A stretch of DNA of 64,000 bases, taken from Gammaproteobacteria bacterium (GTDB taxonomy: Bacteria > Pseudomonadota > Gammaproteobacteria > Eutrophobiales > Eutrophobiaceae). The notes beneath the pieces are model-generated. The model was not told where the DNA came from. It saw only the letters and a program-made list of their open reading frames with translations, and searched no databases. This document shows positions 19,288 through 60,623 of the stretch, piece by piece. The translations under genes were made by a program, and so were the position numbers. How positions within the stretch are numbered: the first letter of the stretch is position 1; every line of letters starts with the position of its first letter. The stretch covers positions 2,560,001 to 2,624,000 of the forward strand of contig CBDCDS010000003.1 of NCBI GenBank assembly GCA_965215365.1, written 5' to 3'.

Positions 19288-19309
19288 CGCGACCCTATCG
19301 TTCTCCCTG

Positions 19310-21628
19310 ATGTCAGCAGACCGGACTCCAAGACTAGAGCGCAAGCTCATCTACTGGTCGGTGCAGGTGTTCATCATTCTGTACCTGACGGTGGCCGCCA
19401 TTATCATCTACAAGGAAACCCTGGATTTCAATGCCGACACCGAATTTTATTCAGCCATTATCTCCGCGGAAGTCAGGGCTGATTTTCTGGAAAATATCCG
19501 CAAGTTCGAAAATTATGTCAAGCGCCGGGTAACGGATTTCCAGTTGTCGGCACTGGCGGCTGACCCTGCCGGAATGCTTGCCGGCTTGGCCCCGCAGGTG
19601 CCGCCGGGACTAGATTGGCTAGTCATGTCGCAAGAGACGCGCACCGACATCCGGGTGACCCGCTACCATGCCACAAGCCAGACCTTGGCACCGGCCAGCC
19701 GCACTGAGCCGGCCGACGCAATGTTGACGCAGACGCTGCAACGCAGGTTTTTTGACGGTGGCCTGAACGACGGCTGGGGCGCGCCGCTGTTGGGGAACGA
19801 TGCCAACTGGCTCTTGCCTTATGCCGTGAAACTGGACGGGTTGCGGTTGTTGATCATGCTGACGCCGCTGGAATTTTTTTTCAGCGGCACTACGGTCTGT
19901 TATGAGCAGGATGAGTTGCAGCGGTTATTGGCGACAGACCCTGACCCGGCCGCCGCGGACAATGTGTCCACGCCGCGCCTCGCAGCCGTGCGCAGCCTCT
20001 ATGCCGACTCCGCCGGCACCTCGGGAGCTTCGCTCGGGCACTGCCTTAACGTTATCGAAAAAGACGTTGTTATGGAGTTCATGCCGGCGGTGAAGTGGTA
20101 TGACCTGCTGTCGCTACCGGACTTTATCAGGACTTACTACCACACCGCAGTGCCCGGTCTGGTGCTTGGTATTGAGTACGACACCGCCGATTTGTATGAC
20201 GAGCTGCGAACTTACCTGCTCTGGGTGATGGCGCTGCTGCTCTGTGTGTTTGGCCTGATTATGCTGGTTATCCGGCGGCTGGCCAGGAAAATCCTGCGTT
20301 CGCTCATCGAGCTGCTTGCCACGGCCAGGGAAATCAGCGAAGGACACCTGGAGACGCGCCTGCCCGAGCGCCAGGATTACCTGGAGCTGGCGCAGTTCGC
20401 CCGGCTGGTCAACAACCTGATTGAACGCTTGCAAGTACAGGTGGAGCGGTTGCACCGGGAAACCATGAAATCCGCGGCGCTGGATAATGAGCTTGCCATC
20501 GCCGGCCGGATCCAGCAAGAGCTGGTGACACAATACGACCTTGAAGAGCTCAATAACCGTTTCAGTTGCGATATCGGCGCCTTCCTGGCGCCGGCCAAAC
20601 AAGTCGCCGGTGACTTTTACTGTCTGGCGCCGCGCCCGGACGGTAAATTGCTGTTTGCCATCGGTGACGTCTCCGGCAAGGGCATTGCCGCAGCTATCGT
20701 TGCCCGGGACTGTGTCAATCTGCTTATGACCAACGGCAAGCGCCTGGGTCTGGCCGACCTGTTGCAGGTTACCAACACCACCTTGTACGAACGCTTTGCC
20801 AGCCAGTCCATGTTTGCCACCTTGTATTGTTGTCTGCTCGACCCCAGGCGTGGTCTGCTGGAACACGCTGACGCCGGCCACGAAAACCCCCTGCTGTACC
20901 AAAAGCGCGACGCCGCCATTGGTCGCTTGCCCGTGGCGCGTAATATCGCACTCGGCTTTTTGCCCGATGCAATCTATGAGACCAGTGCGCAACAGCTGGC
21001 CGCAGACCATTGCCTGTTGCTTTATTCAGATGGTCTGGACGGCGGCCTGGAACAGATACGCGCGTCACGCGGGCTGCCGCTGGGTGTTACGCTGCTCACC
21101 AACGCGGCGCTGAAAAACGTGGAGATGCAAACGCTGTTGCAGTGTGTTTACAAGCAGGCGCTGGAATTGCAGGATAACCGCGCCTATGATGACATCACTA
21201 TGGTCGGCGTGTCCATGCAGCAACGCGGTTATAAATCCTTTCAGCTGCCGCCGGGGCCGGAGGCGGCCGGCACCGCCATTGTGCGCTTGCGTGAGCTGTG
21301 CGCGACACGCGCGCTGTCCGCCGAATGCAGTAACCGGCTCTGTGTCATACTGGATGAATGGGTGAGTAACCTGGTGCGCTATGCCGAGGTTGACAGCGAT
21401 ATTATCGTATCCTGGCTGGTTGCGGAGACCGAGGTTGTGCTGGAAATTGTCGCACGCTGTAATAACATTCTGAACCCGCTGCAACAGCCGCAGCCGGAGG
21501 TGGAGGCGCGCTTGCAGTCCGAGGCAGTCGGTGGTTTTGGTCTGCATATCATTCGCAAGCTGGCGAGCGAACTGGTTTTTGACGTAACTGAACGCTGGAC
21601 CAGGCTGGAGGCGCGGGTCGCACCATGA
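19310..21628 (+). CDS. Membrane sensor: HAMP + PP2C (SpoIIE/RsbU) phosphatase + RsbW-like HATPase domain
   Basis: Two TM segments, HAMP, VAGDFY/IGDVSGKG/YSDGL/YDDIT PP2C motifs, C-terminal LDEWVSNLVRYA and GGFGLHII; start chosen after sctD stop. Confidence 0.85.
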   Translation: MSADRTPRLERKLIYWSVQVFIILYLTVAAIIIYKETLDFNADTEFYSAIISAEVRADFLENIRKFENYVKRRVTDFQLSALAADPAGMLAGLAPQVPPGLDWLVMSQETRTDIRVTRYHATSQTLAPASRTEPADAMLTQTLQRRFFDGGLNDGWGAPLLGNDANWLLPYAVKLDGLRLLIMLTPLEFFFSGTTVCYEQDELQRLLATDPDPAAADNVSTPRLAAVRSLYADSAGTSGASLGHCLNVIEKDVVMEFMPAVKWYDLLSLPDFIRTYYHTAVPGLVLGIEYDTADLYDELRTYLLWVMALLLCVFGLIMLVIRRLARKILRSLIELLATAREISEGHLETRLPERQDYLELAQFARLVNNLIERLQVQVERLHRETMKSAALDNELAIAGRIQQELVTQYDLEELNNRFSCDIGAFLAPAKQVAGDFYCLAPRPDGKLLFAIGDVSGKGIAAAIVARDCVNLLMTNGKRLGLADLLQVTNTTLYERFASQSMFATLYCCLLDPRRGLLEHADAGHENPLLYQKRDAAIGRLPVARNIALGFLPDAIYETSAQQLAADHCLLLYSDGLDGGLEQIRASRGLPLGVTLLTNAALKNVEMQTLLQCVYKQALELQDNRAYDDITMVGVSMQQRGYKSFQLPPGPEAAGTAIVRLRELCATRALSAECSNRLCVILDEWVSNLVRYAEVDSDIIVSWLVAETEVVLEIVARCNNILNPLQQPQPEVEARLQSEAVGGFGLHIIRKLASELVFDVTERWTRLEARVAP

Positions 21629-21634
21629 ACTCTC

Positions 21635-22957
21635 ATGCGTTATAACCTTGCCTACATTACCGATACGATTCAGAAAGTGACGCAGGAAGCCCGCTTGTTT
21701 CAGCTGCATGGCAAGGTCACCAAAGTCACCGGCACCTTGATCCGGGCGAGTGTGCCGAATGCGCAAATCGGCGAACTCAGCGTGTTGCACAGCCCCAATT
21801 CGAGCGTCGATGTGCCGGCGGAAGTGGTCGGGTTTGACGGACGCGAAGCCATACTCAGCCCGGTCGGCAGTATGCTGGGTGTCTCCAACGCCACGCTGGT
21901 GTCGCTGACCGGGACTGTGCAGAGTGTGCCGGTGGGTCCGCAGTTATTGGGCAAGGTACTGGACGGCCTGGGTAATCCCATCGGTGCCCCGCCCATCAAG
22001 ACCAACATCTGCTACCCGGTGATGGCACCGCCGCCGGACCCGATGAGGCGCAAAATCATTGACAAGCCGGTCACCACCGGGCTGCGCGCGCTGGACAGTT
22101 GCATCACCCTGGGCGAAGGGCAGCGTATGGGTATTTTCGCCGCCGCCGGGGTGGGCAAGAGTACCTTGTTGTCAATGCTGGTGCGGCATACCGACACCGA
22201 GGTCGTGGTGCTGGCGCTGATCGGCGAGCGCGGCCGGGAAGTGCGCGAGTTTATTGAACATGACATCGGCACCGAAGGGTTGCAACGTTCGGTGCTGGTC
22301 GTCGCCACTTCGGATAAAAATTCCTTAGAACGCCTGAAGGCTGCCTACGTGGCCACGGCCATTGCCGAATATTTCCGCGATCAGGGTAAGCGCGTGCTGC
22401 TGCTGATGGATTCCGTGACCCGTTTTGCCCGCGCCCAGCGCGAGATCGGACTGGCCATCGGTGAGCCGCCCACCCGGCGTGGTTTTCCGCCGTCGGTGTT
22501 CAGCGAGTTGCCGAAACTGCTGGAGCGGGCCGGTAATTCCGACAAAGGCTCCATCACTGCGCTTTATACGGTGCTGGTGGAAGGCGATGACATGACCGAG
22601 CCCGTCGCCGATGAGACCCGCTCGATTCTCGATGGTCACATCATCCTGTCCCGGCAACTGGCTGAATCCGGCCATTACCCCGCCATCGACGTCACCGCCA
22701 GTGTCAGTCGCGTGATGCCGGCTATCACCGACCCGGAACACCAGCGTTTGAACCTGCGCATGCGCGAATTGTTGACCAAACGCAAGGAAGTGGACCTGCT
22801 GGTTAAGGTGGGCGAGTATAAGTCCGGGGCGGATAAACTGGCGGATGAAGCCATCGCCAAAAACGATCAGCTGGTTAAGTTTCTGCGCCAGCAGCGCGAT
22901 GACGTGGCGCCTATGGACGCGGCGCTGGAGCGCTTGCGCGCCATTATTGACGGTTGA
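21635..22957 (+). CDS. sctN: T3SS ATPase SctN (YscN/FliI)
   Basis: [18 protein letters not shown] Walker [22 protein letters not shown]. Confidence 0.97.
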
Positions 22958-23438
22958 TGCTGCCGTGGTGCTGGAACAGATTCTAGGCATTAAACAACGC
23001 CGTGCAGACGCGACCGTCAGGACCGAACTGCAATCCAGGCTGGAGCTGGAGCAGGCCGCCGGCGCGCTGCGCGCCGAGCAGCAACGCAAGCAGGAGTACC
23101 AGGACTGGTCGGTCGGCGAGCGCCGGCGTCTGTACACGGAGTTGCAGGAGCACGGCGCCGTGACGTACAACGAGCTGATGCAGTGGAACGCGCAAGTGGC
23201 CGACATCAAACAGGGACTGCTGGATATTGAGGCCGGTATCATGCGGCTGGAGCAGGAGCGTCAGCAAAAAATGGACGCGCACCAGACGGCGCTGACGGCC
23301 AGACACGAGGCCCGCCGGCAGGTACTGAAATTTACCGAGCTGGTGGACGCGCAACGGTTCGACGCCCTGCTCGCGCGGCAGGCCCGCGAAGAAAAGGAAC
23401 TGGAAGATTTTCGACGCCCTGAGTCTCATAGCTATTGA
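22947..23438 (+). CDS. sctO: T3SS stalk protein SctO (YscO), start uncertain
   Basis: Coiled coil directly after sctN ending KFTELV...EEKELEDF; last codons overlap IS-end scar. Confidence 0.75.
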
Positions 23439-23447
23439 ACCTGGACA
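23419..23447 (+). mobile_element. Isolated right-end scar of the IS481-family element
   Basis: CTGAGTCTCATAGCTATTGAACCTGGACA vs IS end CTGAGTCTCATATGTATTGAACCTGGACA (27/29). Confidence 0.85.
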
Positions 23448-23452
23448 CACTG

Positions 23453-23481
23453 TTGACAACCACTCGGATTTGTTGTACTAT
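23453..23481 (+). promoter_or_regulatory. Sigma70 promoter of sterol operon
   Basis: TTGACA-N17-TACTAT, 45 bp before first sterol gene. Confidence 0.75.
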
Positions 23482-23526
23482 CGCCTCGGTCTCAATTAAC
23501 AAAACAGTCAGAAGCGAACTCCTAAC

Positions 23527-24627
23527 GTGCCCACCGAAACATCAACCGCCTCAGCTGCGCCGCCGGTTTTCCTCACCGGCGCGGCCGGTCATGTCGGCGC
23601 CAACCTGTTGCGACGCTTGCTTGATGATGGCGTGCGCGTGCGGGTATTGCTGCGCCATGAGGACAATAACGAGGGCCTGGAAGGTCTTGACGTTGAACGC
23701 GTGTACGGCGATATCCGTAATCTCGATGAGACCCGGCGCGCGCTGGAGGGTTGTCAGGGTGTTTACCACGTTGCCGCCAAAATTTCGACCATTGAAGGCA
23801 ATCTGGCGCACCGCCGGGAAATATACGAGTGCAATGTGATCGGTACCCGCAACGTGCTGCAGGCGGCACGCGAAACTGAAGCCGGCCGGGTGGTAGTAAC
23901 CGGCTCGTTCAGCGCCGTGGGATACGATCTGGACAACCCGTCCGCACCCGCGCACGAAAACATGCAGTTCTACCCCATGGAGCGCACCATGCCTTACGAG
24001 CGCAGCAAGTCATTGGTGGAGCATGAGTGCTGGCGCGCCGCGGCCAGGGGCCAGGATGTGGTCGTCGCCACCTGTTGCGCAGTAGTTGGCGGCGCGGATT
24101 TCTTCCCGTCGCGCCTGGGCCGCACCTTGTGCGACTATTCCCACGGCAAACTGCGCGCGTATATCGAGGGCGGTTTCGAGTTTGTCGCAGCCAGAGACAT
24201 CGTAGCAGGGCATGTGTTGTGCATGCACAAAGGACGCTCCGGAGAAAAGTATATCTTCAGCAGCGAATACAAGACCATCTCCGAGATCGTGGCCATGTTC
24301 GAAGAGGTGTCGGGCGTGCCGCAACCCGCGCGCCGGATTCCGTCGCCGGTGATGCTGGTCTTCTCAGAGGTGGCCAGCTTTTACCTGAGTCGCGCGCACC
24401 CGGACTTCCCCCAGCGCTTTACGCCCGGCGCCATCCGCCTGCTGCGTAAGCGCCTGCATGCCAATACCAGCAAGGCCCGACAGGAATTGGGCTACCAGCC
24501 CACCAGCATCCGGGATGCCATGCACGAGGCCTACGCGTTTCATTATCACCAGCGCAAGGTGATTACCAATCCCGCGGCGCGACCGCCGCGCGCCAACGGC
24601 GCGGAATCGACGCATGGGGCGCAATAG
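23527..24627 (+). CDS. NAD(P)-dependent SDR/3-beta-HSD family, SdmB-like sterol C-4 decarboxylase/reductase
   Basis: TGAAGHVG Rossmann motif, YERSK catalytic YxxxK; adjacent to Rieske oxygenase in sterol cluster. Confidence 0.7.
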   Translation: MPTETSTASAAPPVFLTGAAGHVGANLLRRLLDDGVRVRVLLRHEDNNEGLEGLDVERVYGDIRNLDETRRALEGCQGVYHVAAKISTIEGNLAHRREIYECNVIGTRNVLQAARETEAGRVVVTGSFSAVGYDLDNPSAPAHENMQFYPMERTMPYERSKSLVEHECWRAAARGQDVVVATCCAVVGGADFFPSRLGRTLCDYSHGKLRAYIEGGFEFVAARDIVAGHVLCMHKGRSGEKYIFSSEYKTISEIVAMFEEVSGVPQPARRIPSPVMLVFSEVASFYLSRAHPDFPQRFTPGAIRLLRKRLHANTSKARQELGYQPTSIRDAMHEAYAFHYHQRKVITNPAARPPRANGAESTHGAQ

Positions 24628-24669
24628 GGCGGGTGTGCCATTCATTATCAATGCGCTTGAGAGGACAAT

Positions 24670-25812
24670 ATGATAAGCTTGGAAAACACACAAGTCACCG
24701 CTGTTGACGACTCCATGCCGGCATCGGAGGCGCCGCCTGGCTTCGCTGACGGCGGCACCCTGCGACAACAATCACGCGCGGCAGGGATGGACCCGGATTA
24801 CTGGTACGCGGTGGAAGAGGTGCGTAATGTCAAGCCGGGGCAGGTCGTGGAAGTCGTCTTCTGGAAACGTTCCATCGCTCTGTTTCGTACCGACGAAGGT
24901 TCATTTCACGCAGTTGAGAACCGCTGCATTCATCGCCAGCTGAAGCTGTCCCTAGGCAATGTGGAAGGTTGTCGGCTGGTATGCGCCTATCATGGCTGGC
25001 AGTATGATAAAAACGGCCGTTGTGTCGAAACCACGCACAACCGCTTCGGCAAAGAGCTCCCGGAACTTGGATTGAAGACCTACCCGGTGCAGGTGCGTTA
25101 TGGCCTGGTATGGTTGTTTCCGGGCGACCCGGCACAGGCGCAGCAACGCCAAATCCCGGAAATTCCTGAGCTGGAAGGGCCCGATCGCTGGGCCTGTGAG
25201 CCGCTGGTTCTCAATTTTTCGGCGCACCACTCGATGGTCATCGACAATGTCAGCGACTTTACCCACGCTTGGCTGCATCGCCGCTACAAGCCGTTTGAAC
25301 AAGGCGCAGTACTCACCGAGCACGAGGTCGTCGGCGACAATGTGCACCTGTCTTACGACACCAAGGTCGGACGCGGGCGCATCTCCGGACTGTTTGTCGA
25401 TCATGAGCGCCTCAATACCAACCACATGAAGCTGTGCTACCAGTACCCCTACCAGTGGTCCAACACCGATGACGAGATCAAACACTGGTTATTCGTACTG
25501 CCGATCGACGAGCGCACCACCCGCTCTTTCTTCCTGTTTTACTTCAAGTCGCTGAAAATTCCATTGCTGCCGATACGCATCCCCCGGATTGCCATGGAGG
25601 CGGTGATAAAGATCTCAAACCGCATACTGATCGGCCCCCTGCTGGACCAGGACCGGGTGGCGGTGGAGGCCGAACAGGAAGGTTATGACAGCCACTGGCA
25701 CGCCCGTTCCGTCGAGTATAACCCGGTGGTGCAATCGTTCCAGCGTGTGACCGTACGCAAGTGGCGAGAATACCTGGAGCGGACCTCGAGCAACGGCAGT
25801 GCTGATGCCTGA
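24670..25812 (+). CDS. Rieske oxygenase, SdmA-like sterol C-4 methyl oxidase
   Basis: CIH...CAYHGW Rieske motif, DNVSDFTHAWLH mononuclear-iron motif, GAGGA RBS; context. Confidence 0.75.
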   Translation: MISLENTQVTAVDDSMPASEAPPGFADGGTLRQQSRAAGMDPDYWYAVEEVRNVKPGQVVEVVFWKRSIALFRTDEGSFHAVENRCIHRQLKLSLGNVEGCRLVCAYHGWQYDKNGRCVETTHNRFGKELPELGLKTYPVQVRYGLVWLFPGDPAQAQQRQIPEIPELEGPDRWACEPLVLNFSAHHSMVIDNVSDFTHAWLHRRYKPFEQGAVLTEHEVVGDNVHLSYDTKVGRGRISGLFVDHERLNTNHMKLCYQYPYQWSNTDDEIKHWLFVLPIDERTTRSFFLFYFKSLKIPLLPIRIPRIAMEAVIKISNRILIGPLLDQDRVAVEAEQEGYDSHWHARSVEYNPVVQSFQRVTVRKWREYLERTSSNGSADA

Positions 25813-26878
25813 GGCGTTCTCGACACTGTCAGGCGGCGACCTGGTGGCGGCAGCGCTGATGCTGTTGGCGTTCGTCGGCTTGTTGTTCCTAGGTTCAATA
25901 CTACTGCCGGGGGCGCAGGTGGAAGGTCGCCAAAGCAATTACCAGCTGAACGGACTGGTCCTGTTCCTACTGAGCCTGCTTGTGGTCGCGATGGCTCAGG
26001 TTTTCGGCTGGTTTTCCCTGACCATACTGCATACCCACTTTGTTGAGTTGTTCATTGTAGCCAATATCTTTGCTTTTGCCGTTTCCGGCTGGCTGTACCT
26101 GCGCGGCGCCAGCGCGGCGGACCGGCCGGCGGGGTTTTTACGTGGGTTTTTCTTTGGCCGGGAACAGGACCCGGCCTGCTTCGGGGTGGACCTGAAACTG
26201 TTCAGCTACCGCCCTTCCCTGATCGGGCTGGCGCTGCTCAACCTGTCGTTTGCGGTCGTGCAGTATGAAACTTATGGGACGCTGACTCCGGCCATGGCGT
26301 TGTATCAGGCATTTACCTTGCTGTATATATTCAACTACTTTCAGTTTGAACACGGCATGATATACACTTGGGATATCATCAGCGAGCGGCTTGGCTGGAT
26401 GCTGGTCTGGGGCGACTATGTGTTGGTGCCATTTTTCTATTGCATCGCCGGCTGGTGGCTCATCGACGCGCCGGCGGCGCTGTTGTCTCCGGCCGCTGCG
26501 GCCGGAATTGTCGCGTTGTTCCTGTTCGGATTCTGGCTGTTCCGCGGTGCCAACGAGCAAAAACATCGGTTCAAGCAGGACTCCGCTACCAAAATCTGGG
26601 GCAAGCCGGCGCAGACGCTGGACGGACGCTTGCTGGTGTCCGGTTTCTGGGGCATCGGACGGCATCTGAACTACACCGGCGAGATCTGCGTGTATCTGGC
26701 GTTTGCGCTCACTACCGGGTTCGTATCTTGGATACCGTTCCTGTTGCCGCTGTGGCTGGCCTGTCTGCTGGTGCACCGGGCCTGGCGCGATGAACAGCGC
26801 TGCCACGCCAAGTACGGGGAGCTGTGGGGGCGCTACAAGCAGCGCGCCCGTTTTTCCATGGTGCCATTTGTGTATTAA
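25805..26878 (+). CDS. ERG4/ERG24-family sterol reductase (likely Delta14-reductase)
   Basis: DLKLF, WDIISERLGWMLVWGD, LLVSGFWGIGRHLNYTGE, HRAWRDEQRCHAKYG. Confidence 0.9.
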   Translation: MPEAFSTLSGGDLVAAALMLLAFVGLLFLGSILLPGAQVEGRQSNYQLNGLVLFLLSLLVVAMAQVFGWFSLTILHTHFVELFIVANIFAFAVSGWLYLRGASAADRPAGFLRGFFFGREQDPACFGVDLKLFSYRPSLIGLALLNLSFAVVQYETYGTLTPAMALYQAFTLLYIFNYFQFEHGMIYTWDIISERLGWMLVWGDYVLVPFFYCIAGWWLIDAPAALLSPAAAAGIVALFLFGFWLFRGANEQKHRFKQDSATKIWGKPAQTLDGRLLVSGFWGIGRHLNYTGEICVYLAFALTTGFVSWIPFLLPLWLACLLVHRAWRDEQRCHAKYGELWGRYKQRARFSMVPFVY

Positions 26879-26881
26879 CCG

Positions 26882-28240
26882 ATGAGCAACGTCCCCGCCC
26901 CTCAACTGTCCGGTAGCTGGCCGTTGCTCGGTCACCTGCCAGAGTTCTACCGGGAGCCGACGGTCATGCTGAGTCGGGCCTGGGGTGAGCATGGTGAACT
27001 GGCGCACTTTCGCTTAGGTCCGCGCGCGTTCGTCCTGTTTACAGGGCCTAAAGCGCATGACCATTACTTCCGCGCGCCCGAGGAGCAGCTCGACCCTAGG
27101 GTAGTGTACCAATTCACCGTACCCATCTTCGGGCGCGGCGTAGCCTACGATGTTGCGCCCGAGCTCATGTCCGAACAAATCGGCTTCCTGTCCCCGTTAT
27201 TGCGGGAAGCGTCCATGCGCAACTATATCAACATCATGTTTGACGAGGCGCGCGCCTTCGCGTCCGCCCTCGGCACAGAGGGCATTATTGATCTGCCGCA
27301 CGCGCTCAATGAACTGACCGTCAAAATTGCCAGCCGTTGTCTGCTTGGCGAGGAGGTGCGGGCGCAGGTGGATACAGGTTTTGCCGAGACCTACCACGAG
27401 CTGCAGAGCGGCATTAATGTGCTGGGCTTCTTCTTCCCCAAGGCGCCGATAGCGGCGCACCGGCGACGCGATCGGGCGCGGCGTGAAATAGCCAACACTT
27501 TTAGCGGGATTATGGCTGCGCGCAGACGTTCCGGCGCCACGCCGGAGGATTTCATGCAAGCGCTGATGCAAGCGCGTTACAAGAGTGGGCGCGCCTTGAG
27601 TGATGAAGAGATTACCGGCATTTTGCTTACGGTGTTGTTTGCCGGCCAGCACACCAGCGCCGTGCTCGGAGCCTGGACCGGCCTAGAATTAATGCGCGCG
27701 CCGGACTATCTGCAGCAGGTCCGGGACGAGTTGCAGGAAGTCTATACTTCGACCGGCGAGATGAGCCTTGACAGTCTGAAAAAACAGCCCAAACTGGAAA
27801 ACGCGGTGCGCGAGTGCGAACGGCTGCACCCGCCGCTGATCATATTGATCCGTAAAGTGTTGCAACCTATGCACTATGCCGGTCAGAGCGTGCCGGCCGG
27901 CACGCTGGCCATGGTGTCGCCAGCCGTTTCGCACCGGTTGCCACATGTGTTTCCCAACCCGGAACGCTTTGCCCCGGAGCGCTTTGCGCCCCCGTCAAGC
28001 GAACACAAACAGCACCACTACGCCTTGATTGGCTTTGGCGGCGGCAAACATCGTTGCGTGGGGGAACATTTTGCTTATATGCAACTCAAGGCGCTTTGGA
28101 GCGTGCTGTTGGACCGCTTCGATTTCCAGCTGGAAGGCGCTTTTCCCGCCCCCAACTACCGTAGTTGGGTCACCGGGCCCGTGGAACCTTGCCGGGTACG
28201 TTACCAACGCCGCGCGCAAACAAGCGTTTTCCGTCAATGA
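26882..28240 (+). CDS. cyp51: Sterol 14-alpha-demethylase CYP51
   Basis: YQFTVPIFGRGVAYD, LFAGQHTS I-helix signature, ExxR, FGGGKHRCVG heme motif. Confidence 0.93.
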   Translation: MSNVPAPQLSGSWPLLGHLPEFYREPTVMLSRAWGEHGELAHFRLGPRAFVLFTGPKAHDHYFRAPEEQLDPRVVYQFTVPIFGRGVAYDVAPELMSEQIGFLSPLLREASMRNYINIMFDEARAFASALGTEGIIDLPHALNELTVKIASRCLLGEEVRAQVDTGFAETYHELQSGINVLGFFFPKAPIAAHRRRDRARREIANTFSGIMAARRRSGATPEDFMQALMQARYKSGRALSDEEITGILLTVLFAGQHTSAVLGAWTGLELMRAPDYLQQVRDELQEVYTSTGEMSLDSLKKQPKLENAVRECERLHPPLIILIRKVLQPMHYAGQSVPAGTLAMVSPAVSHRLPHVFPNPERFAPERFAPPSSEHKQHHYALIGFGGGKHRCVGEHFAYMQLKALWSVLLDRFDFQLEGAFPAPNYRSWVTGPVEPCRVRYQRRAQTSVFRQ

Positions 28241-31200
28241 GCAGCCTTGCCGCCGAACGCTACGATGTCGCCATCGTCGGCGCCGGTCCAGTAGGTAGCT
28301 TGTGCGCGCTGGCCCACGCGCAGAAGGGCGCGCGGGTGGCGTTGCTGGAAGCCAACCCCAAGGCCTCGCTGCGCTTGGCCGGAGAATGGCTGCATCCGCC
28401 GGCCGTGCGTATGCTGCGAGCAGTCGGCATAGCAATCGACGAACAGCCGCGCAGCAGTACGGGAGAGGGGTTTGCCGTGTTCCCGGAAGACGGCTCCGAG
28501 CCGATAGTCTTGCCTTATCCGAAGGGTGAATGTGGGGTAGCCTGTGATCACACCGCGTTGGTGGCGCGCCTGCATGAGGCGGTGGAGGACGAACCCGATA
28601 TCGATTTTTTACTTCATGCCAAAGTACGCGAAGTTGAAGATGGGCAACTCGCGTTCGCCCGCAATGGCACCTTGGAGACCCTGGCGGCAACGAGTATCGT
28701 CGGCGCTGATGGACGCTCCTCGGTGGTGCGCCAATCACTGGGGTTGCCGGGAAAGCGGATCCCCTGCTCGCGCATGGTGGGGGTGGTCGTTGAGGATGCG
28801 GAGCTACCCGTAAAAGGTTACGGGCACGTTTTGCTTGGGGCGCCGGGGCCAATTCTCGCTTATCACACCGGCGCGCGCCACGTCAGAATCATTGCTGACA
28901 TTCCGCTGGACCACTGGAGCCCCAAGGACCGGGCTAACCTGCTGTCGGAATCGTATGCCGAACTGCTGCCGGAGGCGCTCAAGGCCGGATTTATAAAAGC
29001 AGTGCAGTCAGGAAAATTCCATGCCGCGGCCAATGAACTCAGACCGCGCGTCAGTTACGGCACCTGGCAGCGAACGCTAATCGGAGATGCGGCCGGTCAC
29101 TACCACCCCCTGACCGCAGTGGGCATGACCCTGGGTTTTGGCGATGCCCTGATGCTCGCCAAGTGCCAGAACTTCAATGAATTCAAGCGTCAACGTTTTC
29201 GCGATATTCGCGCGCCGGAGCTGCTGGCCATGGGTATGTATGAGGTATTTGCCGATCACCGGGGCGAGGCCGTGGCGCTCAGGACCGCCATGTACCAGAA
29301 CTGGTTAAAACTGCCCATAGTGCGCGACCGCACCATGCGTTTGCTCGCCTGTGAGGATCGTTCCATAGTGAGGCTCGGCCTGGCCACCTGCGTGACGGCG
29401 CTGCGCGCGCTGACGACACAGACCCCGCACACCTTAAACCGGCTGGCCTGGCGCCGTACCGGTGACGTCATGGGCGCCTTGGCCTCGCGGGTGGTATGGT
29501 TCCTGCACGGCGTTGACATTCTGAGCAAGTTGCGGCGTAACGGCGACAACATGGAAAACAGGTTCCGTGAGGTATTGGCGCGTTCATTCCTGATTTCCGT
29601 GCCTCCCGAAAAAACCGGCGTCGAGCCAGCCGCGCCCAAGGATACAATATCTTTTGACGCGAGCCCGGCCTTGCACAAAGCCGGCGCACGCCTGCTGAGT
29701 TTACAGGGTGATGACGGCGCCTGGGAAGGGGAGATGGTATGGTGCCCCATGCTCACTGCGCAATACGTGTTATTGCAGCACCTCCTAGAGCAACCCATCG
29801 AAGCCGGCCGGCGCCGGCGGATACTGCGTTCGTTTGCGTGTTCCCGTCTGGACAACGGGCTGTGGAGTTTGCATGAACACCCACCCGCCAACCTGTTTGT
29901 CACCACCCTGGTTTATGTTGCCGCGAGATTGCTTGGCCTTGAGCAGGATGATACGCTGCTTAAGCCGGCGCAACGTTTTCTGCAAGCAGAAGGCGTGCGC
30001 GCTATCCCCAGCTGGGGCAAGTTCTGGCTGGCGCTGCTCAACCTGTATGACTGGCGCGGGGTGAATGCCATCCTGCCGGAGTTGTGGGGACTGCCGCGCC
30101 GACTGCCATTGCATCCTTCCAACTGGTACTGTCATACCCGGCTGATCTATATGGCCATGGCCTCGGTTTATGCGCACCGCTATCAGGCCCCCGTCACGAC
30201 CACCATTGCCGCGCTGCGCGAGGAGCTGTATCCACAAGGGTATGAGCAGGTTGATTTCGTCGCCGGCCGCAACGACTTGCGGGCCGGTGACCTGTTTGCC
30301 CGCCCCGGCGTCTGGTTACGCGCCGGCTACGCCTTGACCCGTCTGTACGAGCGCTACCATAACAAGCGCTTGCGCAACCAATGCCTGGAGGCGCTGCGCG
30401 GGCAGATATCCTGGGAATTACAGAGTAGCAGCCATACCAGCATCTCACCAGTGAGCGGTTTTCTCAACATCCTGGCCTTGTGGTTGCGCGATCCGGACGA
30501 TGCCGACTGCCGTCAGGCGCTGGCAAAGCTGGACGACTGGTTCTGGGAAGATGAAGAGCACGGCGCGCGGGTGACCGGTGCCCGCAGCAGCTCCTGGGAT
30601 ACCGGCTTCGCCCTGCAAGCGCTAGCCACGGCGCCGGATGTTGCAGGCGCGCCCAAAGCCATGCGCAAAGGCGCCGAGGCCCTGCGCAACCAGCAGATCC
30701 AGGTCAGTTTTGAGGGCTATAAGGAGGCCTACCGTAATGACCCCCAAGGCGGCTGGTGCTTCCCCGGAGGCTGGCATGGTTGGCCGGTGAGCGACTGCAC
30801 AGCAGAGGCGGCGCTGGGGATAATGGCGGTGCAGGGCGCTGCTACCAACCCGGAAATGCTGGCCGCTGCCGCACGCTTTATGTTGCGCAGCCAGAATCGC
30901 GACGGTGGCTTTGGCAGCTACGAGGCACAGCGTTCCCGTTTTGATCTGGAATGGCTGAATCCGGCGGAGATGTTTGGCGAGTCCATGACTGAGCACTCCT
31001 ACGTGGAGTGTACCGCCTCGTGCATGGCCGCGCTGGCCGCGTGCCGGGAGCACGCGCCGCAAAGCCTGCCTGAAGCAGCGCCGGACGCCATGTCCCGGGC
31101 CGAGTCGTGGCTGCGTAATACGCAGTCCAGCGACGGTTCCTGGCGTGGCGTCTGGGGCGTACAGTTCATCTATGGCACCTTGTTCGGCATCCGCGGGCTG

Positions 31201-31632
31201 ATTGCCGCCGGGGCGCGCCCGGGCGACCCGGCGTTGCGTCTGGCCTGCCGCTGGCTGCTGGAACGTCAACGGGAGGACGGCGGCTGGGGCGAAAGTCTGC
31301 ATGGTTGCCTGAGCGGCGAGTACGTTCCACATGAGGAAAGCCAGATTATCCAGAGCGCCTGGGCGCTGATTGCACTGCTTGAAGCGGGCGAATCAAACTG
31401 GCCCATGATTGTGCGCGGCATCCGTTATCTGGCCGCCACTCAAAATGAGGACGGAAGCTGGCCCAGGCAGGACATGGCTGGCGTGTTTTTTCGTACCGCA
31501 ATGTTGGATTACGTACTGTATCGGCAGTACTTTCCTCTGCACGCGCTGGGTTTGTACGAACGGCGGCGGCGGGCGCGGGCGGAGCTGGCGCAGTCGCTCA
31601 ACCCATTACCAAAACCTGATGGTGTTACCTGA
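28237..31632 (+). CDS. Squalene epoxidase - oxidosqualene cyclase fusion (1131 aa)
   Basis: ATGA overlap with CYP51 stop; N-half GAGPVG, GEWLHP, VGADG, GDAAGHYHPLTAVGMT (squalene epoxidase); C-half QW repeats, WYCHTR, VSDCTAE (OSC, not the SHC DxDD). Confidence 0.92.
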   Translation: MSSLAAERYDVAIVGAGPVGSLCALAHAQKGARVALLEANPKASLRLAGEWLHPPAVRMLRAVGIAIDEQPRSSTGEGFAVFPEDGSEPIVLPYPKGECGVACDHTALVARLHEAVEDEPDIDFLLHAKVREVEDGQLAFARNGTLETLAATSIVGADGRSSVVRQSLGLPGKRIPCSRMVGVVVEDAELPVKGYGHVLLGAPGPILAYHTGARHVRIIADIPLDHWSPKDRANLLSESYAELLPEALKAGFIKAVQSGKFHAAANELRPRVSYGTWQRTLIGDAAGHYHPLTAVGMTLGFGDALMLAKCQNFNEFKRQRFRDIRAPELLAMGMYEVFADHRGEAVALRTAMYQNWLKLPIVRDRTMRLLACEDRSIVRLGLATCVTALRALTTQTPHTLNRLAWRRTGDVMGALASRVVWFLHGVDILSKLRRNGDNMENRFREVLARSFLISVPPEKTGVEPAAPKDTISFDASPALHKAGARLLSLQGDDGAWEGEMVWCPMLTAQYVLLQHLLEQPIEAGRRRRILRSFACSRLDNGLWSLHEHPPANLFVTTLVYVAARLLGLEQDDTLLKPAQRFLQAEGVRAIPSWGKFWLALLNLYDWRGVNAILPELWGLPRRLPLHPSNWYCHTRLIYMAMASVYAHRYQAPVTTTIAALREELYPQGYEQVDFVAGRNDLRAGDLFARPGVWLRAGYALTRLYERYHNKRLRNQCLEALRGQISWELQSSSHTSISPVSGFLNILALWLRDPDDADCRQALAKLDDWFWEDEEHGARVTGARSSSWDTGFALQALATAPDVAGAPKAMRKGAEALRNQQIQVSFEGYKEAYRNDPQGGWCFPGGWHGWPVSDCTAEAALGIMAVQGAATNPEMLAAAARFMLRSQNRDGGFGSYEAQRSRFDLEWLNPAEMFGESMTEHSYVECTASCMAALAACREHAPQSLPEAAPDAMSRAESWLRNTQSSDGSWRGVWGVQFIYGTLFGIRGLIAAGARPGDPALRLACRWLLERQREDGGWGESLHGCLSGEYVPHEESQIIQSAWALIALLEAGESNWPMIVRGIRYLAATQNEDGSWPRQDMAGVFFRTAMLDYVLYRQYFPLHALGLYERRRRARAELAQSLNPLPKPDGVT

Positions 31633-32666
31633 TGACACAGACACGCGAAAAAAGCAAAAAACCTGGTTTTCTTGGGGATCTGGCTTCGCATGAAATCAAG
31701 TCGGTGGTCAATGAATACCGTGAGTTACATGATGCCGACCTGACGCATAGAAAGGAAAGCTATCAGAAACTCGTCAACCACTACTATGATCTGGCCACCG
31801 ATTTCTACGAGTTCGGGTGGGGTCAGTCTTTCCACTTTGCCCCCGGGCGACGCGGCGAGAGCTTCAAAGATGCGTTGCTCAGACATGAGCTGTTCCTGGG
31901 CGGGAAGCTGGAGTTAAAGTCAGGCATGCAAGTCCTGGACGCAGGCTGCGGAGTGGGCGGGCCAATGCGCAATCTGGCCCGCCATACCGGTGCCAGTATT
32001 ACCGGGATAAACAATAACGCCTACCAGATTGAGCGCGCGCGCAAGCACACCCGCGAAGTCAGCTCACTGTGCCGCCTCATTCATGGTAATTACATGCAGA
32101 TCCCGGAGACTGACAACCATTTCGATGCCGCCTACGAGATAGAAGCCATGCCGCACGCACCGGACCGGACTGCAGCGTACCGTGAGGTCTTGCGCGTGCT
32201 GCGTCCCGGCGGCTGCTTCGCCGGCTATGGCTGGTGTCTCACCGAGCATTTCGATCCGCAAAATGCCGATCACCTGCGCATCAAGAAGGATATTGAGGTA
32301 GGCAATGGAATGCCGGACACTCCCACCACAGCGGAGGTGGATGCAGCGTTGCGCGCCGCCGGGTTCGAGCTGCTGGAGGGCCGTGACCTTGCCTCCGAAG
32401 CAGACCCGGAAATGCCCTGGTACCGCCCTTTGCAGGGTGACTTTTTCAGTCTTGCGAGCCTGCCACGCACGCCAACCGGGCGCGCGCTCACAAATCTGAC
32501 TCTGAGGGTAGGAGAGTGGCTGCGACTGGTGCCGAGGGGCGCCCGAGACACCAGCACGATACTGAATCAAGGCGCTGATGCTTTGGTCGCAGGCGGCAAG
32601 GCTGATATATTTACGCCCATGTATTTCTATCTGGTACGCAAGCCAAACGCAGAAAAATCTGCATGA
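31632..32666 (+). CDS. smt: Sterol C-24 methyltransferase (SMT/ERG6 family)
   Basis: YYDLATDFYEFGWGQSFHF, VLDAGCGVGGP, IEAMPHAP, IEVGNG, IFTPMY. Confidence 0.92.
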   Translation: MTQTREKSKKPGFLGDLASHEIKSVVNEYRELHDADLTHRKESYQKLVNHYYDLATDFYEFGWGQSFHFAPGRRGESFKDALLRHELFLGGKLELKSGMQVLDAGCGVGGPMRNLARHTGASITGINNNAYQIERARKHTREVSSLCRLIHGNYMQIPETDNHFDAAYEIEAMPHAPDRTAAYREVLRVLRPGGCFAGYGWCLTEHFDPQNADHLRIKKDIEVGNGMPDTPTTAEVDAALRAAGFELLEGRDLASEADPEMPWYRPLQGDFFSLASLPRTPTGRALTNLTLRVGEWLRLVPRGARDTSTILNQGADALVAGGKADIFTPMYFYLVRKPNAEKSA

Positions 32667-33226
32667 AATACGTATTTGACCCTGAAGTCCTGCGCGAGGT
32701 TGCGCAAGCCCACCTAGAGCTGCCGCTGGAGCAGATGATGCTGGCAATTACTGAGGATCTTGCCGAGCGTTATCCAGGCCGGATCCAGCTCGAGCGTGAA
32801 TGGGTCTTCAACAACGCTGGCGGCGTCATGGGGCAGTTCACTATCCTGTACGCTTCGTTATCGGAGTACCTGATCTTCTTCGGCACGCCCATCGGTAGCG
32901 GCGGGCATACCGGGCGCTATCATTTTGCCGAGGATTACGCATTCGTCTTAGATGGTGAGTTCTGGTATTTTAATCAGGGCGATACTCAAAGACAGGAGTT
33001 CCGTAAAGGCGATTTCGTGCATCTGCCGCAAGGCGCGGCCATGGGTTTTTGTATGGTGGATCATGCCTGGATACTGGAATATGTACGCGGCCCGGTAGTT
33101 ACCATGCTCCCGTTCGGACTCGCCGATACCTTATTCAGTACGCTTGACTACCGCACTTTGTTTCGTACCTTCCGCCTCTACGGTGGACATGTATTGCGTT
33201 CGCTCAGGAAGCCGCCTGGGCGGTAA
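32663..33226 (+). CDS. C-8 sterol isomerase (ERG2/sigma-1 receptor family)
   Basis: WVFNNAGGVMG, LYASLSEYLIFFGTPIGSGGHTGRY, WILEYVRG..MLPFG. Confidence 0.9.
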   Translation: MKYVFDPEVLREVAQAHLELPLEQMMLAITEDLAERYPGRIQLEREWVFNNAGGVMGQFTILYASLSEYLIFFGTPIGSGGHTGRYHFAEDYAFVLDGEFWYFNQGDTQRQEFRKGDFVHLPQGAAMGFCMVDHAWILEYVRGPVVTMLPFGLADTLFSTLDYRTLFRTFRLYGGHVLRSLRKPPGR

Positions 33227-34692
33227 TGCCACCGGTTCAAGATACCTGCCTTGCGGCGCGTAATTCCTGTGCAAGCAGGAATAGTTTGATTGTCGCTGTT
33301 GCGCTCTTGTTCGTGAGCGCGGCTGCCAGCGCGACCGGGTTGCCGCAGCCTGTCAATTTCGTCATCAACGGTTACAAAATTCCATCCGACAGCTACAGCC
33401 TGTATGTGCGCGACGTAGCAGCGCAGGAAGCGATACTGGCTGTCAACGCGGATACTGCGTTCAACCCCGCGTCCGTGATTAAAATCATCCCTACCCTGGC
33501 GGCGTTGGAGTTATTGGGCCCGGCCTATCAATGGAAAACGGAAGTCTATACCCTGGGCCATATCAATGACGGGGTGTTAGCGGGCGACCTGTTGCTCAAG
33601 GGCTATGGTGACCCGCACCTGGTGATAGAGGAGTTACGCAAGCTCCTGGAAGAACTGCGGCGGCGCGGCCTCAGAGAAATTAGCGGCGACCTGTTGATTG
33701 ACTCGTCCTGGTTCGATGTTCCGGCAGCGGACCCGGGCGCCTTCGACAACAGGCCGTTCCACAGCTATAACGTGCTGCCGCATGCCTTGCTGGTGAATTT
33801 CAAGGCAGTGCACTTCCACTTCTATCCGTCCGCAAACGGTAAGGATGTGCAGATTCATGCCGAACCGGAGCTGGCCGGACTGAGCATCGACAACCGCCTG
33901 CGCCTGCGCCAGCGCAGTTGTGGCGGTTTTCAGCGCGGCATCACTGTGACCGTGCCGGATGGCGATAGAGCCGCTACGGTGATCTTTTCCGGGCGCTTCC
34001 CGAACCGCTGCCGGCATTACATCCTGACCCGCGCGCTAATGACCCCTGAGACCTACGCCTATGGCGCATTCAAACTGATCTGGCAGCAACTGGGGGGAAC
34101 TATCACCGGGCAAGTACGTAGCGCGCTGGCGCCGACACAGCAAGAACCCTATCTGGTACATCATTCCAAATCCCTGTCAGACATCATCAGGTACATCAAC
34201 AAGTTCAGCAATAACGTGATGACCCGGCAGCTGCTGCTGACCCTGGGTGCGGAGTTACAGGAAGCGCCGGGCACGGTGGAGAAAGGTGTACAGGTCATCA
34301 ACGACTACCTTGCCGCACTGGGGCTGGAGGTGCACAGCCTGCATATCGACAACGGCGCCGGGCTGTCGCGGCAGGTACGCGTCTCGGCGCAACTGCTGGC
34401 AGCTGTCCTGCAGCGTGGCTGGGACATTCCCCAGGCGCCGGAGTTCATCTCCTCACTGGCCATCACCGGCGTCGATGGCACCGCCCGCCGCCGCCTCAGC
34501 AACAAGGCCGCAGCCGGTTCTGCACACATCAAGACCGGCACCATCGACGAAGTGTCCGCCATCGCCGGCTATGTCCAGGCCCAATCCGGGCGGGACTTTA
34601 TAGTAGTCGGCATGCTCAACCGCAAGCTGGCGCACAAAGGCCACGGCAAGGAACTGATGAACGCGCTGGTGAGCTGGGTTTATGGGCTTTAA
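33226..34692 (+). CDS. dacB: D-alanyl-D-alanine carboxypeptidase/endopeptidase PBP4
   Basis: PASVIK (SxxK), SNN, KTG motifs. Confidence 0.93.
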   Translation: MPPVQDTCLAARNSCASRNSLIVAVALLFVSAAASATGLPQPVNFVINGYKIPSDSYSLYVRDVAAQEAILAVNADTAFNPASVIKIIPTLAALELLGPAYQWKTEVYTLGHINDGVLAGDLLLKGYGDPHLVIEELRKLLEELRRRGLREISGDLLIDSSWFDVPAADPGAFDNRPFHSYNVLPHALLVNFKAVHFHFYPSANGKDVQIHAEPELAGLSIDNRLRLRQRSCGGFQRGITVTVPDGDRAATVIFSGRFPNRCRHYILTRALMTPETYAYGAFKLIWQQLGGTITGQVRSALAPTQQEPYLVHHSKSLSDIIRYINKFSNNVMTRQLLLTLGAELQEAPGTVEKGVQVINDYLAALGLEVHSLHIDNGAGLSRQVRVSAQLLAAVLQRGWDIPQAPEFISSLAITGVDGTARRRLSNKAAAGSAHIKTGTIDEVSAIAGYVQAQSGRDFIVVGMLNRKLAHKGHGKELMNALVSWVYGL

Positions 34693-35417
34693 TGAACTGG
34701 CAAACTGCGCCCGAGCGTCTTGACCTCTCCCCATACCACGTTGATGTCTGGTTGACCTCAACGGAGCTGGAAGAGGAACGGGTGTACAGCTATGCAAAGT
34801 CCCTGACAGAAACAGAACTTGGCCGCGCACGCAAGTTTAAGTTGGCAGCCAAATATCGGGAATACGTGATCACGCGCGGGCTGCTCAGGGAGCTGCTGTA
34901 CAAGGTGGCCGGCCTGGATCTGGCTGGCGTTGACTTCAGCTACGGCGCGCATGGCAAACCCGGTCTGGCGGGGCGCGCCGATATTGTCTTTAATGTGTCC
35001 CACTCCCACGGCCTGGCGCTGGTGGCGCTGGCCACAGGCGGCAGGCTGGGGGTGGATCTGGAACAGGTCAAACCGGGGGTGGCCTGGCGGGAACTGGCCG
35101 AACGCTATTTTTCCGCGGCGGAAGGCCGCGCCCTGCAAGCCCGAGCACCCAGCGAGCACCCACGCGCCGGCTGCGCCTGCTGGACCCGCAAGGAGGCGTT
35201 CATCAAGGCACTAGGTGCCGGGCTCTCCCATGGCTTAACACAGTTCGATGTCAGTGTGGACCCGGACGCAGCCGAGGTAGGCCTGACTCTGCGCATAACC
35301 GGCGAGGACGCCAACGACTGGCAGTTGCGAAACCTGCCGATGCCACCCCGCTACCATGCCGCTCTGGCCCTGGACCGGCCGGCCTGCAAACCCAGGCTAT
35401 GGCGCGCGAACCACTAA
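34692..35417 (+). CDS. Sfp-type 4'-phosphopantetheinyl transferase
   Basis: GKP, FNVSHS, LGVDLE, WTRKEAFIKALG. Confidence 0.92.
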   Translation: MNWQTAPERLDLSPYHVDVWLTSTELEEERVYSYAKSLTETELGRARKFKLAAKYREYVITRGLLRELLYKVAGLDLAGVDFSYGAHGKPGLAGRADIVFNVSHSHGLALVALATGGRLGVDLEQVKPGVAWRELAERYFSAAEGRALQARAPSEHPRAGCACWTRKEAFIKALGAGLSHGLTQFDVSVDPDAAEVGLTLRITGEDANDWQLRNLPMPPRYHAALALDRPACKPRLWRANH

Positions 35418-44326: not shown

Positions 44327-44417
44327 ACTATACCGAACCCTTTGTTGCTCTAGGTTAGCCCGCAGGGGGCGCCCCAAGGAAGGGGCGCATCACAAAATCC
44401 GCCGCGATCTTCGCATC

Positions 44418-45507: not shown

Positions 45508-45570
45508 CGGGTAGTCCTCCTGTGTCAATTAGTTGAGATTAATTCACACACAGACTACCCGATTTCTTTA
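45476..45570 (+). ncRNA. Candidate IS antisense RNA (RNA-OUT-like) over transposase RBS/start
   Basis: TATGAT at 45476-45481, then stem ATCGGGTAGTC (45506-45516)/GACTACCCGAT (45553-45563) followed by TTCTTT; inference only. Confidence 0.4.
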
Positions 45571-45621
45571 TCTAAAGAGTCTCACTTGTTTCTGAACCCG
45601 GACACCCCGAAAGCATTTTCC

Positions 45622-47003: not shown

Positions 47004-47013
47004 GCCCAAGGCA

Positions 47014-49024: not shown

Positions 49025-60623
<11,599 letters not shown>

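Follow-up and report, generated by a model that had tools for sequence, protein, structure and literature searches.

Side-chain-alkylated steranes are read as fossils of eukaryotes (algae, sponges), and each intact bacterial pathway to their precursors weakens that reading. In the account given by Brown 2023 (PMC10070321), no cultured bacterium had yet been shown to make side-chain-alkylated sterols. Does a stretch of DNA from an uncultured gammaproteobacterium of the family Eutrophobiaceae encode such a pathway? The stretch, here called the window, comprises 64,000 nt (positions 2,560,001 to 2,624,000 of contig CBDCDS010000003.1, assembly GCA_965215365.1), and the element in question is a run of seven genes at 23527-33226 of its forward strand. 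From their sequences we consider it likely that these genes form an operon for de novo sterol synthesis, which would lead from squalene to an alkylated delta-7 sterol of plant- or fungal-type character. The operon is real and intact, and probably functional.

A preliminary description of this DNA had placed seven ORFs in this region, and we found all of them intact on the forward strand, with no broken frame. The first, with a GTG start, encodes an SdmB-like NAD(P)-dependent short-chain dehydrogenase/reductase (SDR), a predicted C-4 decarboxylase / 3-ketoreductase (23527..24627). It is followed by an SdmA-like Rieske oxygenase, a predicted C-4 methyl oxidase (24670..25812), an ERG24-type sterol C-14 reductase (25799..26878, starting at GTG 25799 or ATG 25805) and a CYP51 sterol 14-alpha-demethylase without a fused ferredoxin (26882..28240). 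Next come a 1131-aa fusion of an N-terminal squalene epoxidase (SE) and a C-terminal oxidosqualene cyclase (OSC) at 28237..31632, a sterol C-24 methyltransferase (SMT) at 31632..32666 and an ERG2-type sterol C-8 isomerase without an N-terminal membrane helix at 32663..33226. The fusion ORF had been identified correctly, but with a start at TTG 28165; ATG 28237 is the most likely start, since the alignment with relatives begins only at residue 25 and the gene has been called publicly with a length of 1131 aa.

The genes are tightly spaced. SdmB and SdmA are separated by 42 nt containing a ribosome-binding-like GAGAGGA, SdmA and ERG24 overlap by 8 or 14 nt, and ERG24 and CYP51 lie 3 nt apart; the CYP51/SE-OSC and SMT/ERG2 junctions are both ATGA overlaps, and SE-OSC and SMT share 1 nt. 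A sigma-70-type promoter-like site, TTGACA-17-TACTAT, with 10/12 consensus positions, lies on the same strand at 23453..23481 and is the top-scoring of 7 sites in 12.7 kb (shuffles gave 4.0 +/- 1.9 sites). Its -35 hexamer and spacing are kept in two congeners, which have TAGCAT and TAAAAT as their -10 elements. Sequence similarity to these two congeners begins at the -35, and the DNA 5' of the promoter is unrelated. The GTG start of SdmB lines up with the ATG of the congeners. Coordinates, junctions and the conserved -35 all agree with the earlier proposal of seven co-oriented, abutting or overlapping genes behind one promoter. In comparisons with three congeners, every gene has a ratio of nonsynonymous to synonymous substitution rates (dN/dS) of 0.07-0.22, indicating purifying selection.

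We assigned families by Pfam and NCBIfam profile searches and took the nearest solved structures from matches in the PDB. All seven family assignments made previously were borne out by profile matches. The SE-OSC protein carries, in one frame, the SE domain (PF08491, 82 bits), FAD_binding_3, SQHop_cyclase_N (175 bits) and SQHop_cyclase_C (188 bits). Its epoxidase half is closest to human squalene monooxygenase (6c6n, 88 bits; next match 34 bits) and has the FAD-binding GxGxxG motif as IVGAGPVG. The cyclase half is closest to human lanosterol synthase (1w6k, 419 bits), retains the VSDCTAE motif with the catalytic Asp intact, and reaches the cut-off of the broader model TIGR01787 (497 bits, cut-off 323). 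It has Val at human position 453, a residue that tracks lanosterol (vs cycloartenol) production in the bacteria tested by Wei 2016. The valine points to a lanosterol-type cyclase, and therefore no cyclopropyl isomerase would be needed.

The fused arrangement is a constant feature. Epoxidase and cyclase form a single frame in 63/63 loci that hold both domains, among 85 loci examined, and the 120 best database matches of the SE-OSC protein are all fused, at 1089-1183 aa. An AlphaFold2 model built from 40 sequences had a mean predicted local distance difference test score (pLDDT) of 65.5 and a predicted template modelling score of 0.46, too weak for conclusions on domain packing; its epoxidase half is confident and its cyclase half patchy, with residues 460-502 at pLDDT <50.

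The enzymes of the C-14 steps are readily placed. CYP51 has a p450 domain at 210 bits. Its top 56 PDB matches are CYP51 entries without exception, with 7jj1, 6mcw and 6mi0 scoring 367 bits, and the first non-CYP51 P450 scores 131 bits; the heme-Cys loop FGGGKHRCVG and an AGQHTS stretch are present in the alignment. The reductase matches PF01222 (ERG4_ERG24) at 247 bits over profile positions 74-432 and has as its closest PDB relative the delta(14)-sterol reductase 4quv (227 bits); on domain and solved relative it is probably of the ERG24 type. At the C-4 step, the SDR matches two Pfam families, Epimerase at 109 bits and 3Beta_HSD at 68 bits, and has a dN/dS of 0.09-0.10, and the oxygenase matches Rieske (78 bits) and VanA_C (50 bits). 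The two genes adjoin inside a sterol cluster, as is the case for SdmA/SdmB, and SdmAB removes C-4 methyl groups (Lee 2023, PMC10202945). The isomerase matches PF04622 (ERG2_Sigma1R) at 211 bits and shares 52% identity with a fungal protein annotated as C-8 sterol isomerase. Its alignment to the sigma-1 receptor starts at receptor residue 35, and it keeps a Glu aligned with the ligand-binding Glu of that receptor. The ERG4/ERG24 member, the SMT and a strong SdmA-like gene are each present in single copy genome-wide.

The SMT, which would bring in the side-chain alkylation, matches Sterol_MT_C at 77 bits (cut-off 21.7) and Methyltransf_11 at 69 bits. Mapped by motif and spacing, it has 25/25 residues of the set that Brown and Welander 2025 list as conserved in functional SMTs, including GWGxxFHF and DxGxGxxGP, and its dN/dS vs congeners is 0.10-0.14. 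In Region I it has Y81 and F83, and Asn occupies position 249 in yeast numbering (within G-N-G at residues 224-226). Among the 83 nearest SMTs, this position is D in 44, N in 34 and T in 5, and never Gly. Gly249 is described as necessary but not sufficient for propylating SMTs, with G249N yielding C29 and no C30 sterols (Brown and Welander 2025); the SMT studied here thus does not have the residue that goes with 24-isopropyl formation. Bacterial SMTs from comparable clusters methylate sterols in vitro (Brown 2023, PMC10070321).

Taken together, these enzymes suggest the following pathway. Squalene would come from a squalene-synthase-like enzyme that the genome (97.6% complete, 3 contigs) encodes outside the operon. 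In the fusion protein, the N-terminal domain would act as the epoxidase, and the C-terminal domain would cyclise the resulting epoxide to lanosterol. CYP51 would remove the 14-alpha-methyl group and the ERG24-type reductase would saturate the resulting delta-14 bond; since this is a canonical ERG24-type reductase and not an NTF2-type 8,14-Bsr, a delta-8 intermediate is expected. The SdmA/SdmB-like pair would take off one or both C-4 methyls, the SMT would methylate C-24 to give a 24-methylene side chain (a second methylation being possible and a third unlikely), and the ERG2-type isomerase would shift delta-8 to delta-7. The expected product would be episterol (ergosta-7,24(28)-dienol) or 24-methylenelophenol, which is 4-alpha-methyl episterol, or else the corresponding 24-ethylidene compounds. 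Gene content, unbroken frames, catalytic motifs, purifying selection and the promoter are observed directly, whereas we infer the order of these steps, the number of methyl groups removed at C-4 and added at C-24, and sterol production as such.

The product class proposed at the outset, a 4-methyl or 4-desmethyl 24-alkylidene delta-7 sterol, survives whole-genome checks as a prediction. The cluster had been described as having no C-5 desaturase or second reductase, and the same holds genome-wide: a Pfam search of the genome found no FA_hydroxylase PF04116 (which would cover ERG3/ERG25) and no EBP, and PF01222 has no second sterol reductase in the genome. The squalene-synthase-like gene lies on contig C1, matches SQS_PSY at 196 bits and the NCBIfam squalene synthase model at 133 bits, below its cut-off, and adjoins HpnG- and HpnL-like genes (C1:13641-19920). 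A second SdmB-like SDR near the Hpn genes may be HpnA. A squalene-hopene cyclase is encoded apart from the operon (C3:1717067-1718953), and together with the squalene-synthase and Hpn genes this makes both hopanoids and sterols plausible products.

Several observations weigh against this reading. The cyclase has Ala at position 381 and His at 449, which are not the classical lanosterol-synthase residues, and it scores 718 bits against NCBIfam TIGR03463, where the cut-off is 851. For both C-4 proteins the top NCBIfam model is the expected one, but scores stay below the 600-bit equivalog cut-offs: the SDR reaches 291 bits with SdmB (NF052578) and the oxygenase 403 bits with SdmA (NF052579), for which the runner-up scores 35. 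We therefore label them SdmB-like and SdmA-like, although these models are by far the best. The isomerase lacks a residue aligning to Asp126 of the sigma-1 receptor. Redox partners (ferredoxin or reductase) of CYP51, SdmA and the epoxidase are absent from the operon. The number of C-4 methyls lost, one or both, cannot be read from the sequence: Methylococcus SdmAB strips one and Calothrix SdmAB two, and Enhygromyxa requires SdmC, according to Lee 2023 (PMC10202945). Some bacteria with SE and OSC, for example C. coralloides, gave no detectable sterol in culture in the work of Wei 2016. Finally, two accessory enzymes encoded outside the operon may alter the final product.

These two enzymes form the basis of the alternative that survives best. 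It keeps the same pathway and takes the delta-7 24-methylene sterol as an intermediate, which the accessory enzymes would tailor to a sterol that the operon does not predict. We regard this as a tentative but serious possibility. The enzymes are a 691-aa fusion of GPP34 (Golgi phosphoprotein 3-like) and cytochrome P450 (L119:12037-14112) and an LkcE-like flavoprotein of the amine-oxidase family (L119:14920-16299), whose genes lie side by side on contig C3, beside an operon for a resistance-nodulation-division (RND) efflux system. In favour of tailoring, both recur beside sterol cassettes in many phyla and both are kept in the window genome: the flavoprotein is found in 23/85 loci at 73-88% identity, at least 9 of these copies lying 69-300 nt from SdmB, and the GPP34-P450 in 21/85 loci. 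The flavoprotein of the window genome is 88% identical to the copy of a congener that lies directly upstream of SdmB. A Nitrospirales locus carries, 5' of its SMT, a GPP34-P450, a second SMT, a KshA-like Rieske protein, an outer-membrane beta-barrel protein and an amine-oxidase-family flavoprotein; the window-genome proteins are 53% (GPP34-P450) and 82% (flavoprotein) identical to the copies of this locus. Synteny of SMT with a flavoprotein, a Rieske protein and a P450 in SdmAB-type bacteria is likewise described by Hoshino and Gaucher 2021 (SI Text 3, PMC8237579), who suggest that these serve an unknown pathway of steroid modification but also allow service in another pathway. Against tailoring, the closest solved relative of the flavoprotein, LkcE of lankacidin synthesis, scores 81 bits. 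Two members of the accessory module, the KshA-like Rieske protein and the second SMT, are without an orthologue in the window genome, and the genes that are kept lie ~250 kb before the operon. Absence of further tailoring holds only for the cluster itself, given two conserved accessory genes elsewhere in the genome.

A broader proposal takes in the SMT as well. The SMT query matched 3620 database proteins, and the best 120, with the query itself excluded, are 64-73% identical and mostly unnamed. In a tree with its nearest relatives, no terminal branch of the 83 is as long as that of this SMT (0.46; median 0.058), so its regiochemistry or substrate may differ from plain C-24 methylation. We compared 23 genomes of the genus, the window's own counted, and observed the fused cyclase in 11/23, ERG2 in 9/23 and Sterol_MT_C in 14/23. 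SMT stands between OSC and ERG2 in the window genome, G005/L054, G008 and G021. In G006, the sister of the window genome, OSC abuts ERG2 and no SMT was found genome-wide. In G020 and G002 the slot between OSC and ERG2 is empty and the SMTs lie elsewhere in the genome. Five congeners (G003, G013, G015, G018 and G019) have an SMT homologue and no cyclase cassette, G018 with a lone ERG2 homologue. Such SMT-domain genes would suit modification of acquired sterols. In an even class-wide sample, SMT occurs in 2/401 genomes, the window's genome counted.

We also considered separate acquisition of the SMT within the genus. Genus SMTs fall at three places in the SMT tree, and the synonymous divergence (dS) of the SMT vs L054 is 2.5 (saturated), against 0.60-0.92 for the remaining genes of the cluster and for PBP4, and 1.30 for the phosphopantetheinyl transferase gene downstream; vs G008 it is 1.58, near that of neighbour genes. 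These data hint at replacement, with repeated loss as the other reading, but an approximately unbiased test does not reject a single clade (log-likelihood difference 0.87, p = 0.50), and we did not adopt separate acquisition. It is improbable, in our estimate, that the following three linked proposals hold jointly: that GPP34-P450 and flavoprotein give a modified delta-7 sterol class without eukaryotic counterpart, that the long-branch SMT has another regiochemistry or substrate, and that the SMT is an exchangeable module in the genus.

Under a further alternative, the enzymes would mainly remodel sterols derived from a eukaryotic host, with de novo synthesis minor or absent. The five cassette-less congeners with SMT homologues would fit this, as would a Chlamydiae SMT that Brown 2023 (PMC10070321) reports from a metagenome-assembled genome (MAG) without other sterol genes. 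An intact SE-OSC under selection, coupled between CYP51 and SMT, would be useless on finished sterols, however, and a squalene-synthase-like gene is present. We consider remodelling as the main function quite improbable. Very unlikely is a cluster that is silent, decaying or devoted to a non-sterol triterpenoid: the unusual cyclase residues 381 and 449 and the score below the curated NCBIfam cut-off could be taken that way, but the frames are unbroken, selection is purifying, the promoter is conserved, and CYP51, C-14 reductase and C-4 demethylase make sense only on a protosterol skeleton.

The preliminary description had also named a chimeric join with the flanking gammaproteobacterial genes as a concern. 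We found near-identical sequence in 12 runs from 6 studies, 10 of these runs containing at least half of the sampled words; no RNA run was listed among them. Two contigs of an independent study match with 0 differences: one of 4724 nt covers 19280-24003 (type III secretion flank, promoter and SdmB start) and one of 1230 nt covers 32913-34142 (the ERG2-PBP4 junction), so that both cluster edges are bridged. An 8650-nt contig from a third study (two runs) covers 26807-35294 with 99 differences. In the strain of this third study the flank at 19001-23449 differs at 243/4449 positions (5.5%) and the sterol cluster at 0.1-1.2%, and contigs of related strains end or turn unlike at 23449/23450, just 5' of the -35 (window 23449-23455). 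An assembly chimera of foreign sterol genes and gammaproteobacterial flanks is extremely unlikely, since this contig break, the divergent flank and the GC contents at third codon positions of SMT (0.65) and ERG2 (0.63) vs their neighbours (0.68-0.75) are met by the zero-difference contigs, by one-contig congener genomes in which this cluster recurs together with both of its downstream genes, by concatenated core proteins that place six congeners in one clade with support 100, and by an overall GC content that is even over the region.

With a de novo sterol operon as the preferred reading, we compared it with known systems. The novelty attached to the cluster in the preliminary description did not hold, because the cluster type with SMT, SdmAB pair and SE/OSC fusion has already been published (Kelly 2022; Brown 2023; Hoshino and Gaucher 2021). 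It is known from uncultured, largely sponge-associated bacteria, and the present operon is a further example. Dozens of MAGs from many phyla have this SdmB-SdmA-ERG24-CYP51-SE/OSC cassette together with an SMT, their proteins being 61-83% identical to those of the window. In species-representative genomes, 138 stretches encode SMT relatives, of which we fetched the best 80. These 80 loci all come from MAGs, assigned to Alpha- and Gammaproteobacteria, Nitrospirales, Binatia, Rhodothermales, Gemmatimonadota, Acidobacteriota and others. The whole SdmB-SdmA-ERG24-CYP51-SE/OSC set is present in 51/80 at 52-83% identity, and ERG2 lies directly 3' of SMT in 8/80. In a tree of concatenated core proteins from cassette relatives (56 rows, 2677 columns), the named classes are obtained with the smallest possible number of changes, and the branches that separate phyla are short. 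This tree fits a small number of transfers between phyla and vertical descent thereafter, the scenario proposed by Kelly 2022 (PMC9531527).

The clusters of Kelly 2022 (CSGs), from Ircinia sponges, occur in 115/537 MAGs of 11 classes and are described there as subject to purifying selection and horizontal transfer. They resemble the present operon, in which ERG24, CYP51 and cyclase directly follow one another on one strand, with SdmA/SdmB-like genes and SMT in the same cluster: the order is ERG24-CYP51-LSS, flanked by SMT and a 'DFR' that is SdmB-like, and our low dN/dS values and short inter-phylum branches are also in keeping. They differ in that their annotation is KEGG-based and that SdmAB, fusion and ERG2 are not treated in the account we drew on. 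Brown 2023 (PMC10070321) describes SMT clustered with sdmA/sdmB and erg homologues, and a fused SMO/OSC in its Methods. Here, in contrast, the gene after the SMT is that of an ERG2-type isomerase; searched by term, Supplementary Data 1 of that study gave an '8-isomerase' row only for a Sandaracinus MAG. Two further differences are that the present SMT is at most 73% identical to other proteins among its best 120 matches and that the seven genes are collinear in a near-complete 3-contig genome.

For pre-LECA (last eukaryotic common ancestor) eukaryotes and myxobacteria, Hoshino and Gaucher 2021 (PMC8237579) infer that SMT and ERG2 convert zymosterol or 4-methylzymosterol to episterol or 24-methylenelophenol, which is the product predicted here. 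Our case differs in being one gammaproteobacterial operon with an unlinked P450 and flavoprotein. Methylococcus capsulatus shares the lanosterol-type cyclase, the CYP51 (its enzyme is the closest PDB match) and a Rieske protein with an SDR for C-4 (Lee 2023, PMC10202945; Lee 2026, PMC13277303). It has an NTF2-type 8,14-Bsr and a CYP51-ferredoxin fusion, in contrast to the ERG24-type reductase and unfused CYP51 here. The operon adds SMT and ERG2 relative to Methylococcus, and delta-7 24-alkyl sterols would therefore be expected and not 8(14)-sterols. With the eukaryotic ERG1-ERG7-ERG11-ERG24-ERG6-ERG2 series it shares homologous enzymes for six steps; it differs in that SdmAB is non-homologous to ERG25/26/27, epoxidase and cyclase form one polypeptide, and the ERG3, ERG5 and ERG4 steps are absent.

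The finding adds an example, not a principle. Its additions are modest: ERG2 in an SdmAB-type cassette, the universal fusion, a mobile SMT and two conserved accessory genes. The operon offers a compact, complete template for reconstitution in E. coli, as its seven genes are collinear behind one promoter and its epoxidase and cyclase are fused. If the SMT is exchangeable, sister species would mark their habitat and the sterane record with different sterol side chains. We see leads in the constant epoxidase-cyclase fusion, in the role of GPP34-P450 and flavoprotein, and in the varying placement of SMT within the genus.

The co-oriented, coupled run extends past ERG2. A PBP4-type D-Ala-D-Ala carboxypeptidase gene (33226-34692, forward strand, Peptidase_S13 296 bits) and a 4'-phosphopantetheinyl transferase (PPTase) gene (34692-35417, forward strand, ACPS 58 bits) follow, each with a 1-nt overlap, and a sequence scan found no convincing terminator 3' of ERG2. 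Both genes also stand 3' of ERG2 in two congeners. They are probably coupled neighbours and not sterol enzymes.

The left edge of the operon is a rearrangement point, because contigs break there, the flank is diverged and congeners have other DNA upstream. In the window, the upstream segment 19157-23438 encodes a HAMP-SpoIIE phosphatase with HATPase_c_2, a YscN-like type III secretion ATPase (21635-22957) and a YscO-like protein (22845-23438). We considered a link between the operon and these type III secretion genes and rejected it: the YscO homologue of G006 has an internal TAG and is found ~1 Mb away from the sterol cluster of that genome, and the YscO query of the window had no match in four other congeners. 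The adjacency is probably incidental. In two congeners a divergent RND efflux operon, comprising outer-membrane factor, adaptor and AcrB-type pump, lies upstream of SdmB (L109:4070-10098 and L103:12762-16999), in one of them with the flavoprotein gene in between. Its counterpart in the window genome is 71% identical. A sterol-specific RND pump was also rejected, as the proteins score only as generic RND and the window genome's copy lies ~255 kb from the operon.

Further downstream, the window encodes on the reverse strand a cyclopropane-fatty-acid-synthase-like methyltransferase (43109-44377) and an IS481-family transposase (44482-45528), followed by a further methyltransferase (45586-46341) and an ORF with weak similarity to SQS_PSY/HpnD (46795-47838; Pfam 38 bits, HpnD 64 bits, below cut-off). 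A 3223-aa ORF with fibronectin type III repeats occupies 49025-60623 of the reverse strand at 65-70% GC, vs ~59% in the rest of the window, and beside it lies a gene for a 641-aa protein with RTX-type calcium-binding repeats.

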